Positions 3,747 to 55,719 of a stretch of DNA of 64,000 nt are shown here, piece by piece. Origin of the DNA: Escherichia phage HX01; the sequence record NC_018855.1, one strand, 5' to 3'. Positions within the stretch are counted from its first letter, which is position 1; each line of letters opens with the position of its first letter. A program made the translations under genes and the position numbers. The notes beneath the pieces are model-generated. The model was given only the letters and a program-made list of their open reading frames with translations. It had not been told where the DNA came from and searched no databases.

Positions 3747-4110
3747 GCCCTGGGCGTATGAATACAAGCGTAAATTAATCCCAAATGAAGTACTATTTGG
3801 CCCTATTTTAGCTTTAGCATTTTTAATCTTTATGATTATAGGAGCTGTTTTAGATTCCAATAAAGTTATATCGTCTGATGCAGCGTTTTCATTAATGTTC
3901 GTCGCACCACTTATTGTACCGTTTTTATTAATGCCTATTAATTGGGCAGGATATTGGCACCAAGGCCGTCATCACAGAGCCCGATTAAGAGAATGGAAAG
4001 TTCAGTGCGCAAAAGCCCAAGCTCAGTATGATGAAGCTGTTAAAAAGTATGAATATGAAGAAGCTATGGAATTCGTTAAGGAAATAAGATGCAAAAACCT
4101 CAACTCTTAA
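3715..4110 (+). CDS. small membrane protein, C-terminal EFVKEIRCKN tail
   Basis: ORF track 3685..4110; first ATG 3715; hydrophobic segments. Confidence 0.5.
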   Translation: MSKPTLYMPSKPWAYEYKRKLIPNEVLFGPILALAFLIFMIIGAVLDSNKVISSDAAFSLMFVAPLIVPFLLMPINWAGYWHQGRHHRARLREWKVQCAKAQAQYDEAVKKYEYEEAMEFVKEIRCKNLNS

Positions 4111-5242: not shown

Positions 5243-5272
5243 GTTTACAACAAGATAGGGCTATGTTATAGT
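5243..5272 (+). promoter_or_regulatory. early promoter with inverted repeat around -10
   Basis: GTTTAC 5243-5248; GATAGGGCTA / TAGTCCTATC inverted repeat. Confidence 0.5.
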
Positions 5273-5300
5273 AGTCCTATCAAATTAAATGGAGTCCACA

Positions 5301-6537: not shown

Positions 6538-6567
6538 GTTTACACAATTATAGGGCTATATTATAGT
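6538..6567 (+). promoter_or_regulatory. early promoter
   Basis: GTTTAC 6538-6543; near copy of the 5243 promoter. Confidence 0.5.
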
Positions 6568-6595
6568 AGTCCTATTAAAACATGAGGAGAATATT

Positions 6596-8761: not shown

Positions 8762-8795
8762 GTAATAAATACCTCCTATAAACGTGGGAGGTATT
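8757..8795 (+). promoter_or_regulatory. late-promoter-like element plus hairpin covering the lysozyme ribosome-binding site
   Basis: AATAAATA 8764-8771 (one mismatch to TATAAATA); 9-bp inverted repeat AATACCTCC 8768-8776 / GGAGGTATT 8787-8795. Confidence 0.5.
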
Positions 8796-9284
8796 ATGAA
8801 TATATTTGAAATGCTTCGTAATGACGAAGGTCTTAGACTGACTTTATACAAAGACACTGAAGGCTTTTGGACGATTGGCATAGGCCATTTAGTAACAAAG
8901 AACCCATCTTTAGCCGTAGCTAAAGCTGAACTTGACAGAATGATCGGCCGTAAATGCAACGGTACAATTACCCTTGATGAGGCTGAAAAGCTATTTAATG
9001 AAGACGTTGATAAAGCCGTTCGCGGAATCTTGGGTAATGCTAAACTTAAACCGGTATACGATTCTTTAGATGCGGTTCGTCGTTGTGCATTGGTCAATAT
9101 GGTCTTCCAAATGGGTGTAGCAGGCGTCGCCGGTTTTACTAATTCTCTTCGTATGCTTCAACAGAAACGTTGGGACGAAGCGGCAGTAAATCTAGCCCAA
9201 TCTAAATGGTATCGTCAGACACCCAATCGCGCGAAACGCGTAATATCAACATTTAAAACAGGAACTTGGAAAGCGTATATATGA
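8796..9284 (+). CDS. e: lysozyme (endolysin), T4 e homolog
   Basis: MNIFEMLR...DEAEKLF...[41 protein letters not shown] matches T4 lysozyme from memory. Confidence 0.95.
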
Positions 9285-9550: not shown

Positions 9551-9605
9551 GTTTACTTCCTCCAAGGGTTTTGATACTATACATTCATCAACTACTTGGA
9601 GGAAA
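9551..9605 (+). promoter_or_regulatory. early promoter with inverted repeat covering the denV ribosome-binding site
   Basis: GTTTAC 9551-9556; perfect 10-bp inverted repeat TTCCTCCAAG 9557-9566 / CTTGGAGGAA 9595-9604. Confidence 0.55.
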
Positions 9606-9607
9606 TT

Positions 9608-10021
9608 ATGACTCGTATCAATTTAACACTTGTTTCTGAACTGACCGACCAACATCTTATGGCTGAGTATCGTGAATTACCACGCGTATTTGGTGCAGTC
9701 CGTAAACATGTTCAAAACGGTAAACGTGTAAAGGATTTTAAAATCTCCCCGACATTTATCTTAGGCACAGGTCATGTAACATTCTTTTACGACAAACTCG
9801 AATTTTTACGTTTACGTCAAATCGAGCTAATCGCTGAATGCTTGAAACGTGGTTTCAAAATCAAGGACACGACTGTCCAAGATATTTCCGACATCCCTGC
9901 CGAATTTCGTAATAATTATGTCCCGACCGAAGCGTCCATTGCGATAAGTCAAGCTCGTTTAGATGAAAAAATTGCTCAACGTCCTACTTGGTACAAATAC
10001 TATGGTAAATCAATTTACTAA
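9608..10021 (+). CDS. denV: endonuclease V, pyrimidine-dimer DNA glycosylase
   Basis: [34 protein letters not shown]... matches T4 DenV from memory; ORF track start trimmed. Confidence 0.93.
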
Positions 10022-10112
10022 GGAAAAAGGTTGCGATGGTAAAGCTTAAACAGTTTACGCTTAAGTATTAATATGGTATAATTACTCTATCAAAACAAAC
10101 AAGGAAACAAAA

Positions 10113-10417: not shown

Positions 10418-10450
10418 GTTTACTTTCTCCTAGAATTGTGATAGTATAAT
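10418..10450 (+). promoter_or_regulatory. early promoter
   Basis: GTTTAC 10418-10423, TATAAT 10445-10450. Confidence 0.45.
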
Positions 10451-10472
10451 CATAATTACTTGGAGAGGTAAA

Positions 10473-10546
10473 ATGACTCGATGAAAAAATTTTAATGAAG
10501 CCACACTGGTATAAGTATTAAGGCAAAAATATTTACATTCAAATAA
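10473..10546 (+). pseudogene. remnant of a denV-like gene (start fused to 3' end)
   Basis: ATG-ACT-CGA (MTR, as denV start) then TGA; following sequence reads DEKILMKPHWYKY*GKNIY, paralleling the denV C-terminus [19 protein letters not shown]. Confidence 0.4.
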
Positions 10547-10687
10547 CATGGGAACAAGCTGGACCTCATGATTCTATGAGGGATTCCCGCCAACCTGTAA
10601 TAAGGTCGAGTCCAAGTGCGGTAATGGGTAAATACAGAAATGGACAATTCATGTGCCATGGAATGGCCCAAACTTAGAGAGAACAAA

Positions 10688-12360: not shown

Positions 12361-12659
12361 TGGCTCAAATCCTATCAGGCTTTGGAACTCATTATGAAGC
12401 ATCTCGACGCATAACTGAAAGCAATCCTTTTGGCCTTGTTCCGAAGCACAAGAAAATTCAAAGCCTTGATGACTTTGAGAATCGCCTATGGGCCCTCTTT
12501 AATGAGTACAAGGCATATCTGAAAGAAGACGCTGACGATTGTCTTGAAGAAGATGAGATTGCGTATTATGAACAACGCCTTGAACAGCTCAAGAACTTCC
12601 ACCAGGTTCGTGACGAAGTATCTAAAGCAGTTAAAAAGTTAATTCCTTTCAAAGAGTAG
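12360..12659 (+). CDS. hypothetical protein
   Basis: 99-aa ORF. Confidence 0.55.
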
Positions 12660-12708
12660 TTTACTTCTCCTCTAGTTGTGTTACTATAGACCTGTCAACT
12701 AGAGGAGA
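12659..12708 (+). promoter_or_regulatory. early promoter with inverted repeat covering the regB ribosome-binding site
   Basis: GTTTAC 12659-12664; perfect 13-bp inverted repeat TCTCCTCTAGTTG 12666-12678 / CAACTAGAGGAGA 12696-12708. Confidence 0.6.
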
Positions 12709-12715
12709 AATCAAA

Positions 12716-13174
12716 ATGACTATCAATTCAGACGTTTTTATCCGCCGTAATAAACTCCGTCGAATCTTTGAAACGGAGTTCCGCAAAATAAATGCCAGTA
12801 TAAAAGATGCTGCAAAGTCTCTTGGACTACCAGGCTTTCATATCAAGTATTCTCAACATCTCTTAGATCGTGCCATCCAGAGAGAAATAGATGAGAACTA
12901 CGTTTTTGAATTATTTCGTAAAGTAAAAAATCATGTTAAAGAAGTTGCAGAATTTTTATCAATGCCGGCACGTCCAGATGTTGATGAAGATTTTGTCGAA
13001 GGTGTTGAATATCGCCCAGGCCGTTTAGAAATAACTGACGGAAATCTTTGGTTAGGACTTACAGTTTGTCGCGAAAATCCTGCATTCAAAATGAAGACTC
13101 TTCAATGCAGAATGGCTATTATTAACAGTAAACGACTACCAGGAAAAGCTTCTAAAGCAGTGATTAAAATCTAG
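12716..13174 (+). CDS. regB: RegB site-specific endoribonuclease
   Basis: MTINSDVFIRRNKLRR...KYSQHLLDRAIQREIDE...CRMAIINSKRLPGKASKAVIK matches T4 RegB from memory. Confidence 0.9.
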   Translation: MTINSDVFIRRNKLRRIFETEFRKINASIKDAAKSLGLPGFHIKYSQHLLDRAIQREIDENYVFELFRKVKNHVKEVAEFLSMPARPDVDEDFVEGVEYRPGRLEITDGNLWLGLTVCRENPAFKMKTLQCRMAIINSKRLPGKASKAVIKI

Positions 13175-16249: not shown

Positions 16250-16278
16250 AGCCCCTTCCTTACGGTTGGGGCTTTTTT
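16250..16278 (+). terminator. rho-independent terminator
   Basis: AGCCCC..GGGGC then TTTTTT; near copy of the 816-846 terminator. Confidence 0.7.
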
Positions 16279-16288
16279 GCATTTAGCA

Positions 16289-16340
16289 GTTTACTTCTCC
16301 TCAGGTTGTGTTATAGTAGACCTTACTTACTAGAGGAGAA
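16289..16340 (+). promoter_or_regulatory. early promoter with inverted repeat covering the ribosome-binding site
   Basis: GTTTAC 16289-16294; TCTCCTC / GAGGAGA inverted repeat. Confidence 0.55.
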
Positions 16341-16344
16341 CGTT

Positions 16345-16524
16345 ATGTCACGTAAAGAAAAGATTTCTAAGTTGATGTTTTTGATTGAAGAGTATGCTAA
16401 TGCGGTATCTGATTGGGAAAATGCTCATGGTTGCGAAGATGGAGACATCGACATTAACAGAGCTATGAAAAAGATGGCCGAAGCCCACACCGAATTGCAA
16501 ATGTATGTTAACGAGATTATGTGA
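16345..16524 (+). CDS. hypothetical protein
   Basis: ORF track 16306..16524; ATG 16345 after SD GAGGAG. Confidence 0.5.
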   Translation: MSRKEKISKLMFLIEEYANAVSDWENAHGCEDGDIDINRAMKKMAEAHTELQMYVNEIM

Positions 16525-17003: not shown

Positions 17004-17045
17004 TTTACGTCTTGGTAGGACTATGATATAGTAATCCTACCAAGA
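17004..17045 (+). promoter_or_regulatory. early promoter with 12-bp inverted repeat
   Basis: GTTTAC 17004-17009; GTCTTGGTAGGA 17010-17021 / TCCTACCAAGAC 17034-17045. Confidence 0.55.
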
Positions 17046-17060
17046 CAAATGGAGAACAAA

Positions 17061-20895: not shown

Positions 20896-20925
20896 GTTTA
20901 CAAGGTCTATGGTTATGTTATTATA
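20896..20925 (+). promoter_or_regulatory. early promoter
   Basis: GTTTAC 20896-20901, 17-nt spacer, TATTAT. Confidence 0.55.
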
Positions 20926-20951
20926 GACCTATCAACTACTGGAGGTAAAAC

Positions 20952-30400: not shown

Positions 30401-30543
30401 TATCTCATTTCTAATATAATCCATTGGAATCTTCACTTCACTATCTCCTTGTGCCCCTCTCAAATCGAAAATATTTTCATAAAACAGTTTACATCCTCAA
30501 TAGATGTGTTAAGATTAAACCATCTACTATAGAGGAAAATAAA

Positions 30544-30726
30544 ATGACAATTGAAGATAAAGAAATTAAGGTCGACCAGTACTATTCTGTCAATGGTAAT
30601 GCAGTACAGATAACCAGAGTTTCAAGCCTGGATGTTTGGTACCATTCAATCAAATATCCAGAAATTGGTGAAATGCTTTGTGACCGTGGTATCTTCTGTT
30701 CAATTGCGAAGGAAATTAAGCCATGA
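30544..30726 (+). CDS. hypothetical protein
   Basis: ORF track 30424..30726; ATG 30544 after GTTTAC promoter (30486) and SD AGAGG. Confidence 0.5.
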   Translation: MTIEDKEIKVDQYYSVNGNAVQITRVSSLDVWYHSIKYPEIGEMLCDRGIFCSIAKEIKP

Positions 30727-53414: not shown

Positions 53415-53444
53415 GTTTACATCTTCCTCTAGGCGTGATATGAT
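53415..53444 (+). promoter_or_regulatory. early promoter
   Basis: GTTTAC 53415-53420. Confidence 0.45.
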
Positions 53445-53473
53445 GTACTTACACAAACCAAGAGGAAAACATT

Positions 53474-53848
53474 ATGAATATGTCTCAAGCAATTTTTACT
53501 GCAATCACCGAAAACACAACTGTTGAAGTAGTTTCTCCGCTGGCAACCTACGTTATTCTTGCACCTAAAACTATTGTATCTCGTATGGAAAACATGGGCA
53601 AACGTATCGTACAAATTGTTGGAGCCGGAAATCAAAAACTTGATTATCTACGAACCATCAAAGCTTATGAACATTTCCAACTCGAAAAAGGTTCTCCTAT
53701 CCAGGTAGAACTCGTAAATGGTGATATCGTTCGAGCAATGTTCCATCATTTCTATGCATTGAATGACCCGTCTAAAGCGGTTCGTTTAATTGCATACGAC
53801 GCAAACCAAAACGAAATCAACGCAGATGTATCTAAATTACGTTTTTAA
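53474..53848 (+). CDS. hypothetical protein
   Basis: 124 aa, SD AGAGGAAAA. Confidence 0.6.
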   Translation: MNMSQAIFTAITENTTVEVVSPLATYVILAPKTIVSRMENMGKRIVQIVGAGNQKLDYLRTIKAYEHFQLEKGSPIQVELVNGDIVRAMFHHFYALNDPSKAVRLIAYDANQNEINADVSKLRF

Positions 53849-53899
53849 GTTTACTTCTCCGGTAGTTGTGTTATTATAGACCTATCAACTACTGGAGAA
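53849..53899 (+). promoter_or_regulatory. early promoter with inverted repeat covering the ribosome-binding site
   Basis: GTTTAC 53849-53854; 14-bp inverted repeat TTCTCCGGTAGTTG 53855-53868 / CAACTACTGGAGAA 53886-53899 (one G-T pair). Confidence 0.55.
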
Positions 53900-53903
53900 C
53901 AAA

Positions 53904-54221
53904 ATGAAAACCATCGATTGTAAAGCAGAATTTAAGATTTTTTATCACGGTTCAAGTAGTTCAGCTAACATCGAAAACATGCTTTGTCCTCCTGAGGAAA
54001 CAGGAGTTCTGTCTGAAACTGGACGTAAGAAAAACTTGGATCGTGTATTCTTTACTGAAGATATCGGTTTAGCAAAGATTTATGCAGGACGAGCAGCACG
54101 CTCTTATGGAGGTGAACCACGTCTCTATCGAGTAATTTCTCCGGTAGACGTAGTTCAAATGAATAATACTAAAGGTGCTACAGTTTATCACGCTGAATGG
54201 GCATTTTGCGAGGAAATATGA
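53904..54221 (+). CDS. hypothetical protein
   Basis: 105 aa. Confidence 0.55.
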   Translation: MKTIDCKAEFKIFYHGSSSSANIENMLCPPEETGVLSETGRKKNLDRVFFTEDIGLAKIYAGRAARSYGGEPRLYRVISPVDVVQMNNTKGATVYHAEWAFCEEI

Positions 54222-54655: not shown

Positions 54656-54683
54656 CTTTCTATCAACTACAGAGGAAATTGAA

Positions 54684-55113: not shown

Positions 55114-55362
55114 ATGGAATTATTCGTAGCTAGTTCAGTAGCGGTTTTAATCGCAGGTATTGGTTCAATCATCATTTACATGTTGCCTTGGGTAATCGCA
55201 CTTATTCGTGGCACAAAAAGCACAACAGCAATCTTTTTTGTATCTTTACTCTTTAACTGGACGATGATTGGTTGGATTGGAACTTTAATTTGGTCTATCG
55301 TTGCCGAAAAGAAATCTGCCCAGCAGCCTCAACAAGTAATTATTATTCGCGAAAAAGAATAA
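55114..55362 (+). CDS. small two-TM membrane protein
   Basis: 82 aa, two hydrophobic helices. Confidence 0.6.
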   Translation: MELFVASSVAVLIAGIGSIIIYMLPWVIALIRGTKSTTAIFFVSLLFNWTMIGWIGTLIWSIVAEKKSAQQPQQVIIIREKE

Positions 55363-55366
55363 ACTT

Positions 55367-55400
55367 GTTTACATTATAGATGGACTATAGTATAGTAGTC
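55367..55400 (+). promoter_or_regulatory. early promoter
   Basis: GTTTAC 55367-55372; GGACTA/TAGTCC inverted repeat. Confidence 0.5.
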
Positions 55401-55425
55401 CTATCAAATCAACTAAGGAGTTAAA

Positions 55426-55719
55426 ATGAAAAAGTTATCATTGGCAGCAATCTTACTTGCAGTATCATGTGCACCAGCTCCAGTTACGGCAGGTTATGAT
55501 AAAGACCTCTGTGAGTGGTCAATGACTGCAAATCAAGAAGATGTTGAACAACAAATCTTCTCTGATATCATGAACATCACTAAACGAGACCGTCCTAATA
55601 TGGTTAATAAAGTTGTTGAACAACTTAAGTCTGGCGGTATCATGCAGTACAACTATGTTTTGTATTGTGACCCTAATTTCGATAACAAAGATATCGTAAC
55701 CGAAATCACAGGTGAATAA
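55426..55719 (+). CDS. sp: Spackle periplasmic protein
   Basis: 97 aa, signal peptide, GYDKDLCEWSMTA...SGGIMQYNYVLYCD matches T4 Sp from memory. Confidence 0.8.
   Translation: MKKLSLAAILLAVSCAPAPVTAGYDKDLCEWSMTANQEDVEQQIFSDIMNITKRDRPNMVNKVVEQLKSGGIMQYNYVLYCDPNFDNKDIVTEITGE

Follow-up and report, generated by a model that had tools for sequence, protein, structure and literature searches.

Early promoters of Escherichia phage HX01 with an embedded anti-Shine–Dalgarno arm and the predicted silencing of read-through translation

Hairpins that hide the Shine–Dalgarno sequence (SD) of a gene on long RNA are known for e (lysozyme), soc, 49, I-TevI and segB of phage T4 and for mobE of phage Aeh1. 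In these e-type switches the promoter lies in or at the hairpin, and its own transcripts, which lack the 5′ arm, are translated. For T4 lysozyme the long-transcript mechanism has been described, with translation cut about 100-fold by the structure (PMC3014915). In the known cases the promoter is a gp55 late one (TATAAATA), and expression is delayed to late times; the genes regulated in this way ‘are all late genes’ (2010 review). Here, we describe a related arrangement at early promoters of Escherichia phage HX01, in a stretch of 64,000 nucleotides (NC_018855.1; this whole stretch is called the window below). At several of them, including those of denV and regB, an inverted repeat places an anti-SD arm in the space separating the −35 box from the −10 box and the partner arm over the SD of the downstream gene. 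As in the e-type switches, the hairpin would hide the SD on long RNA, and the promoter's own transcripts are predicted to lack the 5′ arm. Unlike in those switches, the promoter is a sigma-70-dependent early one, the anti-SD sits in the −35/−10 spacer, and the prediction is for the reverse outcome, namely a confinement of expression to immediate-early transcripts. No TATAAATA late promoter was found at the four sites named in an initial annotation of the window (9551, 12659, 16289 and 53849), where the promoters are of the early type GTTTAC-N16/17-TAnnnT; a late promoter together with a late gene, one of the features that define the e-type set, is absent from these sites. The best-supported mechanism, which we regard as fairly probable, is that the promoter-embedded anti-SD silences the translation of read-through RNA while proximal transcripts stay translatable.

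The closest functional counterpart outside phages is the insulation provided by sigma-54 promoters. Anti-SD motifs inside these promoters silence read-through translation (Levy et al., bioRxiv 10.1101/086108). The CT-rich motif lies upstream of the promoter's own start and therefore acts on read-through RNA only; in the HX01 promoters the anti-SD likewise precedes the start and is complementary to the downstream SD. The two differ in that the sigma-54 motifs are bacterial, 3–5 nt long, dispersed and defined by reporter libraries, whereas the phage arms form helices of 10–14 bp at a fixed position in sigma-70-type early promoters and are known from sequence covariation.

Early promoters with an overlapping inverted repeat were reportedly described by Repoila in 1994 at the T-even internal-protein (IP) loci. 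The papers on the composite promoter/stem-loops called PeSLs attribute PeSL-like sequences at these loci to that work (PMC2839356, PMC4122927). As far as these papers relay it, overlapping repeats were known before, but were interpreted as recombination or terminator modules. In a PeSL, a strong early promoter is combined with an SD, a start codon and an inverted repeat that overlaps or adjoins the promoter; such elements recur between small early genes and have been linked to gene gain and loss (Arbiol 2010; Comeau 2014). The same composite is found here, at 24 early promoters of the window and with a significant repeat in 46 of 109 promoters in a wider sample (see below). The published stem-loops either are G/C-rich elements inside the promoter, as in RB49, or precede it, as in PST/T4, and were read as terminators or attenuators and as recombination sites, whereas in HX01 the SD itself makes up the 3′ arm and arm sequences are not conserved between cassettes but covary within each. 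SD pairing and its translational consequences are not discussed in the two PeSL papers (PMC2839356, PMC4122927), and targeted full-text literature searches returned no description of SD pairing at T4 early promoters, the older subscription literature lying outside their scope. It is conceivable, though we think it rather unlikely, that such pairing at some T4 early promoters has already been remarked on in Miller 2003, Repoila 1994 or Liebig & Ruger 1989.

Anatomy and predicted folding of the SD-covering repeats

The initial annotation had placed the 5′ arm in the −35/−10 spacer and the 3′ arm over the SD at its four promoters, and had counted denV and regB among the genes concerned. Both statements are borne out. 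Read directly from the sequence, the 5′ arm starts immediately after the −35 hexamer and the SD is contained in the 3′ arm at all four sites, each of which has GTTTAC, a spacer of 16/17 nt, TAnnnT and an ATG 27–28 nt further on; the open reading frames (ORFs) at 9608 and 12716 are denV and regB, with 91% and 77% amino-acid identity to T4 DenV and RegB, respectively. Besides an orphan copy at 10418, two members absent from that annotation exist, at 30487 and 53415, and are listed with them:

9551–9610, + strand: denV cassette; −35 box GTTTAC 9551–9556, −10 box TACTAT 9575–9580, ATG 9608; 5′ (anti-SD) arm TTCCTCCAAG 9557–9566 and 3′ arm CTTGGAGGAA 9595–9604, 10 bp, perfect; SD GGAGGA 9598–9603, within the 3′ arm; expected transcription start about 9587
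12659–12718, + strand: regB cassette; −35 box 12659–12664, its G overlapped by the upstream stop codon TAG (12657–12659), −10 box TACTAT 12682–12687, ATG 12716; 5′ arm TTCTCCTCTAGTTG 12665–12678 and 3′ arm CAACTAGAGGAGAA 12696–12709, 14 bp, perfect; SD GAGGAG
16289–16347, + strand: weak member; −35 box 16289–16294, −10 box TATAGT 16312–16317, ATG 16345 of a 59-residue ORF; 5′ arm TTCTCCTC 16295–16302 and 3′ arm GAGGAGAA 16333–16340, 8 bp; a terminator-like hairpin with a T-run lies upstream (about 16250–16280)
53849–53906, + strand: −35 box 53849–53854, −10 box TATTAT 53872–53877, ATG 53904 of a 105-residue ORF with no T4 homolog; 5′ arm TTCTCCGGTAGTTG 53855–53868 and 3′ arm CAACTACTGGAGAA 53886–53899, 14 bp including one G·U pair
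30487–30546, + strand: additional member; −10 box TAAGAT 30510–30515, ATG 30544 of a gp55.6 homolog; 5′ arm TCCTCAATAG(ATG) 30494–30506 and 3′ arm (CATCTA)CTATAGAGGA about 30521–30536, bulged
53415–53476, + strand: weak additional member behind a terminator, with a small predicted SD occlusion; ATG 53474 of a 124-residue ORF with no T4 homolog; 5′ arm TCTTCCTCTAGG 53422–53433 and 3′ arm CCAAGAGGAAAA 53458–53469

Start sites were taken from the promoter geometry, at about 7 nt past the −10 box. Since the 5′ arm lies downstream of the −35 box and upstream of the −10 box, any plausible start site of the promoter itself leaves the arm out of the RNA, and the claim that proximal transcripts lack it holds by geometry.

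A mechanical scan of the window gave 24 promoters of the GTTTAC-N16/17-TAnnnT early type on the + strand, each upstream of an ORF with its SD and ATG. The spacing between −10 box and ATG is very regular (27–30 nt at most of them). The mean duplex energy between spacer and leader of these 24 promoters is −10.2 kcal/mol for cognate pairs, compared with −7.2 kcal/mol for non-cognate pairs (0 of 10000 permutations as low). Individual duplexes, compared with shuffled 5′ regions, have energies of −20.0 at 9551 (z −5.45), −23.4 at 12659 (z −5.88) and −22.2 at 53849 (z −5.85), with z −2.72 at 16289; the additional members reach −12.3 at 30487 (z −4.22) and −14.8 at 53415 (z −4.19).

We then folded each cassette from its −35 box to position +15 of the ORF, as read-through RNA would contain it, and the expected proximal transcript. 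In the long RNAs the SD is predicted to lie in a stem, with minimum free energies (MFEs) of −19.1 (z −3.98), −21.6, −15.1 (z −0.58) and −21.0 (z −4.0) kcal/mol at 9551, 12659, 16289 and 53849, respectively; the proximal transcripts have MFEs of −2.1, −2.5, −2.0 and −0.3 kcal/mol in the same order, and a free SD. The ensemble cost of opening the SD, long versus short RNA, is 8.8/2.4 at 9551, 15.5/2.8 at 12659, 8.9/1.0 at 16289 and 12.5/2.5 kcal/mol at 53849, and 7.0/0.8 and 3.6/1.7 kcal/mol at 30487 and 53415. The prediction that read-through RNA folds and occludes the SD thus agrees with the modelled opening costs at the four sites (8.8–15.5 kcal/mol long versus 1.0–2.8 short). The long-minus-short difference amounts to 6–13 kcal/mol at 9551, 12659, 16289, 30487 and 53849, and to at most 2.2 kcal/mol at 18 of the 19 remaining window promoters, the exception being 60733 with 4.1. 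The site at 16289 is the weakest of the four by every measure (MFE z −0.58; shuffle p = 0.013–0.04).

The lysozyme gene of HX01 lies in the same window and provides an internal positive control:

8763–8798, + strand: hairpin of lysozyme (e); ATACCTCC 8769–8776 pairs with GGAGGTAT 8787–8794; ATG 8796

Late-promoter-like motifs, AATAAATA and TATAAACG, are found around its 5′ arm and loop. Its MFE is −16.3 kcal/mol (z −3.88), and the cost of opening its SD is 13.1 on the long and 3.9 kcal/mol on the short RNA, a difference of 9.1. With MFEs of −19.1, −21.6 and −21.0 against −16.3 kcal/mol, three of the four early hairpins are at least as strong as a hairpin of the type with a proven effect. The lysozyme analogy drawn in the initial annotation can therefore be put in quantitative terms, the modelled energetics of the e hairpin being comparable.

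Conservation and covariation of the arms in relatives

The same architecture is present in T4 at denV (TCTCCTGTAG/CTACAGGAGA), regB (TTTTCCTCTTGACTG/CAGTTAAGAGGAGAA), nrdC.8 and motB.2, with arm sequences unlike those of the window. We gathered further denV and regB loci from IMG/VR. Arm pairs upstream of denV include CCTCCAAG/CTTGGAGG, CTCCTGTAG/CTACAGGAG, CTCCGTTTG/CAAACGGAG and CTCCTGTG/CACAGGAG, and those of regB orthologs CTCTAGTTG/CAACTAGAG, CTCTTGACTG/CAGTTAAGAG, CTCTTTATG/CATAAAGAG and CTGTAAG/CTTACAG. In several T4-like lineages the 5′ arm of denV is formed by the last part of the −10 box together with the +1 region (ATGTCCTCC...GGAGGACAT; tatgATGTCTTCC...GGAGGACAT; TAGCCT...AGGCTA), which is a different anatomical solution with the arm still upstream of the expected start:

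about 3930–4003 in each locus, IMG/VR loci L015, L023–L025, L028–L032, L036 and L037: denV arm on the −10/+1 region

A long-minus-short cost of at least 4 kcal/mol is kept in 26 of 31 distinct denV upstream regions (median 7.9), by at least ten arm designs. The exceptions are mostly jumbo phages with another promoter type. As just six of the 24 window promoters reach 4 kcal/mol, the pairing at denV is a property of the gene and not of early cassettes in general. Moreover, denV stands behind different cassettes in different phages, and its hairpin stays while the upstream gene varies. In the jumbo phages (L026–L031, genomes of 345–378 kb, about 3930–4000), denV has a TTGAC-type promoter, and a G/C-rich hairpin with a T-run behind it encloses the −35 box (aaaagggTTGACttcggtcagcccttttt...TATAAT). 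Here promoter and terminator form a genuine composite in the style of the RB49 PeSLs, with no SD occlusion.

If the arms evolve as pairs, each should fit its own partner beyond the SD itself. In a swap test the stem extends beyond the SD/anti-SD core, in the direction of the loop, by a median of 5 bp in cognate pairs and of 0 in swapped ones (0 of 20000 permutations; p < 5e-5), and the extension sequences of the 19 cassettes are nearly all different (18 distinct). A collection-wide scan, constrained by GTTTAC, TCTCC, TAnnnT and GGAGA only, returned 88 unique cassettes, in which an extension of at least 4 bp occurs in 53% of cognate and 6.5% of swapped pairs. Pairs were also counted in a gapless alignment of 16 cassettes of the same geometry, picked regardless of pairing: all eight informative pairs show changes on both sides, there are 20 compensatory cells, a value that none of 500 shuffles reaches (8.0 ± 2.1), and the covariation score of 0.215 compares with 0.077 when shuffled and 0.012–0.108 with the partners slid. 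MAFFT followed by RNAalifold on 14 and on 8 cassettes predicted no structure; the arms were out of register because the SD-to-ATG and spacer lengths vary. Taken together, these comparisons indicate that the SD pairing is under selection, the SDs of denV and regB staying paired in T4 and other relatives via unrelated arms.

A motif just past the start site, (T)ATCAACTAC, is common to many leaders, those of T4 included (for example 9581–9594, 12688–12701, 20925–20940, 53878–53891 and 54656–54670). At the hairpin-bearing sites the spacer arm appears to have evolved to fit this conserved leader motif.

Two classes of promoter-embedded repeats and their genomic setting

We then considered 109 non-redundant T-even early promoters, drawn from the window, 80 kb of T4 and the IMG/VR loci. 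About 40% of them (46) carry a significant promoter-embedded repeat, with the −10 hexamer between the arms in every case, and the coverage of the SD is all-or-none (0% in 28 repeats, 100% in 17 and 83% in one). The SD-covering class (n = 18) has a median stem of 12.5 bp and a median loop of 20 nt (range 14–32). The −10-flanking class (n = 28) has stems of 9.5 bp and loops of 8 nt and leaves the SD free; it may match the published PST/T4 ‘PeSL’ stem-loops, and its arms covary between orthologs too (at mobD.2, AGTTGACAAGATTA in T4 and GTCTTGGTAGGAC in the window):

5254–5281, 6550–6575, 17009–17046 and 20903–20930, also about 2444–2478 and about 55377–55405, window: −10-flanking repeats (for example GTCTTGGTAGGACTA...TAATCCTACCAAGAC)
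ipI, ipII, mobD.2 and dmd, T4: −10-flanking repeats

The two classes share a genomic setting. An intrinsic terminator lies upstream of one of the 46 repeat-bearing promoters and of 14 of the 63 repeat-free ones (Fisher p = 0.0035), and of none of the 28 promoters of the −10-flanking class. The upstream stop codon lies within 8 nt of the −35 box at 81–89% of repeat-bearing promoters (both classes; 89% in the SD-covering class), compared with 47% of repeat-free ones. This abutment of stop codons and scarcity of terminators make both classes look like devices to handle RNA reading in from upstream, and the repeats look to sit where a terminator had no room or was not selected. SD occlusion is possible as a mechanism for the SD-covering class only; it cannot account for every promoter-embedded repeat, since the −10-flanking ones stay clear of the SD.

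We may wonder at this stage whether these elements are simply mobile cassettes of the PeSL type, that is, recombination sites that shuffle early genes, with a stem-loop acting as attenuator or terminator and SD pairing as an incidental outcome. Composite promoter/stem-loops occur in RB49/phi1, PST/T4 and nt-1/KVP40 and PeSL-like ones at the T-even IP loci, and one RB49 stem-loop lowered lacZ expression like a strong terminator (PMC2839356, PMC4122927). The mutual exclusion of repeats and intrinsic terminators would also suit such a role. Turnover of cassettes appears real: an orphan lies at 10418 beside the remnant of an IP leader, denV is preceded by varying cassettes among phages, and cassettes sit on two ORFs without T4 homologs (53474 and 53904). 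Yet recombination needs similarity between cassettes, whereas the arms diverge between cassettes and covary within them, as the 18 distinct extensions among 19 show. The repeats also seem to lack the character of a terminator or attenuator, to judge from the absence of a U-tract and the long loops of the SD-covering class, none of which scored as terminator-like, and the stem-loops published for T4/PST lie upstream of the promoter, a different anatomy. Nor would this explanation account for the all-or-none coverage of the SD or for the conservation at denV through varied arm placement. The divergence between and covariation within cassettes, the missing U-tracts, the long loops and the all-or-none coverage together argue that SD pairing itself is selected, and we consider PeSL-type cassettes with an incidental pairing unlikely. 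A plain intrinsic terminator was rejected as well: the 3′ arms are followed by AAATTATG, AAATCAAAATG, ACGTTATG and ACAAAATG, with no U-run, and the terminator scan gave no match there.

The proximity of stop codons raises a second possibility, translational coupling, in which the SD would be closed on polycistronic RNA until the ribosome that ends the upstream ORF melts the 5′ arm. The frequency of abutting stops in the SD-covering class (89% versus 47%) fits this, as do the stop that overlaps the −35 G at 12659 and the position of the anti-SD at the base of the stem, the part nearest to the terminating ribosome. With textbook footprint sizes, however, a ribosome whose A site holds the stop codon would cover no more than about 0–5 nt of a stem of 10–16 bp, so that most of the SD would stay paired. 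Furthermore, the −10-flanking class, in which the SD is uninvolved, is equally near stop codons, and the denV hairpin persists although the upstream gene differs among phages. We therefore regard coupling as quite unlikely.

Several observations weigh against translational insulation as the explanation of these repeats. Orthologs change class: T4 nrdC.8 has its SD covered and the window ortholog at 20897 does not, and at the 55.6 gene a repeat is absent from T4 but present in the window (30487). The cassette at 16289 is marginal and lies behind a terminator, and the long-minus-short difference at 53415 is just 1.8 kcal/mol. When a ribosome terminates at the abutting upstream stop, it could fray the stem at its base. 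The −10-flanking class, with a free SD, is the more numerous (28 of 109) and equally anticorrelated with terminators, and repeats in these promoters might serve some more general function. Finally, the excess of G·U over A·C pairs in the stems (16 versus 9; 18 versus 9, p = 0.12; 5–7 versus 2) leans towards RNA but is never significant.

This last point bears on a third alternative, in which the repeat would act at the DNA level, by cruciform extrusion or by altered melting or strength of the promoter under supercoiling; the loop would hold the −10 box. The −10 hexamer is indeed invariably between the arms, and the asymmetry of wobble pairs (18 versus 9, p = 0.12), which leans 2:1 to the sense strand, falls short of significance. 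The loops of 14–32 nt in the SD-covering class would disfavour extrusion, however, and neither the all-or-none coverage of the SD by the 3′ arm nor the upkeep of SD pairing at denV when the 5′ arm shifts from the spacer to the −10/+1 region is predicted by it. A DNA-level function strikes us as highly improbable.

A broader proposal may be made from the two classes, with reservation: promoter-embedded hairpins, which can form on read-through RNA only, could be a general organising principle of the early regions of Tevenvirinae, both classes replacing intrinsic terminators at tight gene junctions and the SD-covering one leaving its gene translatable from its own promoter alone (‘one promoter, one translated cistron’). 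We find this possible, if somewhat doubtful. If true, it would give immediate-early proteins such as RegB and DenV a built-in shut-off upon silencing of the early promoters, and could explain part of the so far unexplained mismatch in timing between mRNA and protein in T4 omics data.

Predicted insulation of early promoters and other features of the window

In the proposed insulation, which would act at the RNA level, a T4-type early promoter (GTTTAC-N17-TAnnnT) carries the anti-SD directly after its −35 box, and this arm is complementary to the SD and flanking leader of the gene that begins 27–30 nt downstream of the −10 box. Proximal RNA, starting about 7 nt past the −10 box, would lack the anti-SD arm and keep its SD free, while RNA reading through from upstream early, middle or late promoters would hold both arms and form a hairpin of 10–14 bp, the loop of which (17–28 nt) would house the −10 box and the start site. 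As this hairpin would bury the SD, the gene would go untranslated from read-through RNA. DenV, RegB and a few other proteins would then be made from their own immediate-early transcripts only, and their synthesis would end at the shut-off of the early promoters though the region is still transcribed; the lysozyme late promoters about 800 nt upstream of denV, for example, would keep that region transcribed. The logic would be that of lysozyme, soc, 49 and I-TevI with the temporal sign reversed. We infer the position of the start site, the formation of the hairpin in vivo against competing ribosomes, the block of translation and its size, and the purpose of the arrangement. The interpretation offered in the initial annotation is supported by the computations and the comparative evidence, as a prediction of function.

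Read-through into these genes is to be expected, since no terminator-like site was found between the promoters at 10054/10419 and regB, between 53415 and 53849, or between the e late promoters and denV; the promoter nearest upstream of the 53849 cassette lies 434 nt before it, with no terminator between. Published data on T4 agree with this picture. At 2–3 min into the infection the regB promoter is switched off, and the production of RegB ‘must be tightly regulated’ (PMC3014915); the RegB protein belongs to the early class (PMC9697503). In vivo, RegB cuts the SDs of T4 regB, nrdC.8 and motB.2, as well as that of denV once an A-rich element is grafted (PMC1702504), which indicates that the SD is accessible on the bulk, proximal transcripts.

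RegB also suggests a further alternative, in which the helix would serve RNA stability, shielding GGAG on read-through RNA from RegB (possibly also from RNase E) and leaving proximal RNA cleavable. RNA secondary structure does protect GGAG from RegB (PMC3014915; PMC1702504), RegB cleaves its own SD, and GGAG is present in 15 of the 18 SD-covering cassettes. This is not a significant enrichment (83%, compared with 66% of other promoters; p = 0.17), the cassettes at 30487 and 53415 have GAGGA and no GGAG, and the GGAG of T4 denV resists RegB by its sequence, whatever the structure (PMC1702504). Such an effect would in any case supplement translational occlusion and not substitute for it, and as the explanation of the repeats we judge it very unlikely.

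T4 is a textbook system of temporal control, and its reviews list hairpins that sequester the ribosome-binding site for late genes only. With a conserved early version, the shut-off of immediate-early proteins would gain a third layer beside promoter silencing and RegB cleavage; such a version would also explain the constrained promoter spacers of these phages and would recast part of the PeSL recombination/terminator cassettes as translational insulators. In practice, poor expression should be expected of these genes when they are cloned with their native promoter region downstream of foreign promoters, and the cassettes would offer synthetic biology compact, natural ‘insulated promoter-RBS’ (ribosome-binding site) parts.

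The surroundings of the cassettes are 95–97% identical to Escherichia phages of the Tevenvirinae, the top single-piece match being vB_EcoM-ZQ3 (Mosigvirus). The + strand is the early-gene strand, in synteny with T4 e–denV–regB–tk–rI–nrdC–pin–49–nrdD–55 and further. The ORFs at 53474–53848 (124 residues) and 53904–54221 (105 residues), each with its SD-covering cassette, have no tblastn match in T4 coordinates 1–80000; they lie just upstream of an imm.1 homolog and after a long ORF with a terminator-like hairpin, and look like cassette-borne insertions. At 10418–10475 lies an orphan early-promoter cassette much like the T4 ipIII promoter, in which the SD and the ATG lead into a frame of two more codons before the stop. 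Non-coding sequence of about 200 nt comes next and includes, at 10520–10555, the remnant of an internal-protein gene leader (aaaatatttacatt...); the region resembles a scar left by the deletion of an IP gene. Because this orphan cassette is palindromic, the minus strand also shows a promoter-like match, at 10472.

Rfam has no family at the promoter-repeat sites, its sole matches in the window being two tRNAs at 1–146, the first of which is truncated by the window edge. Finally, it may be mentioned that the spackle (sp) homolog follows imm immediately (55114–55716), whereas in T4 about 6 kb (42, beta-gt, uvsX, 40, 41 and dmd) separate the two genes; this adjacency is a difference in gene order from T4 in that part of the window.

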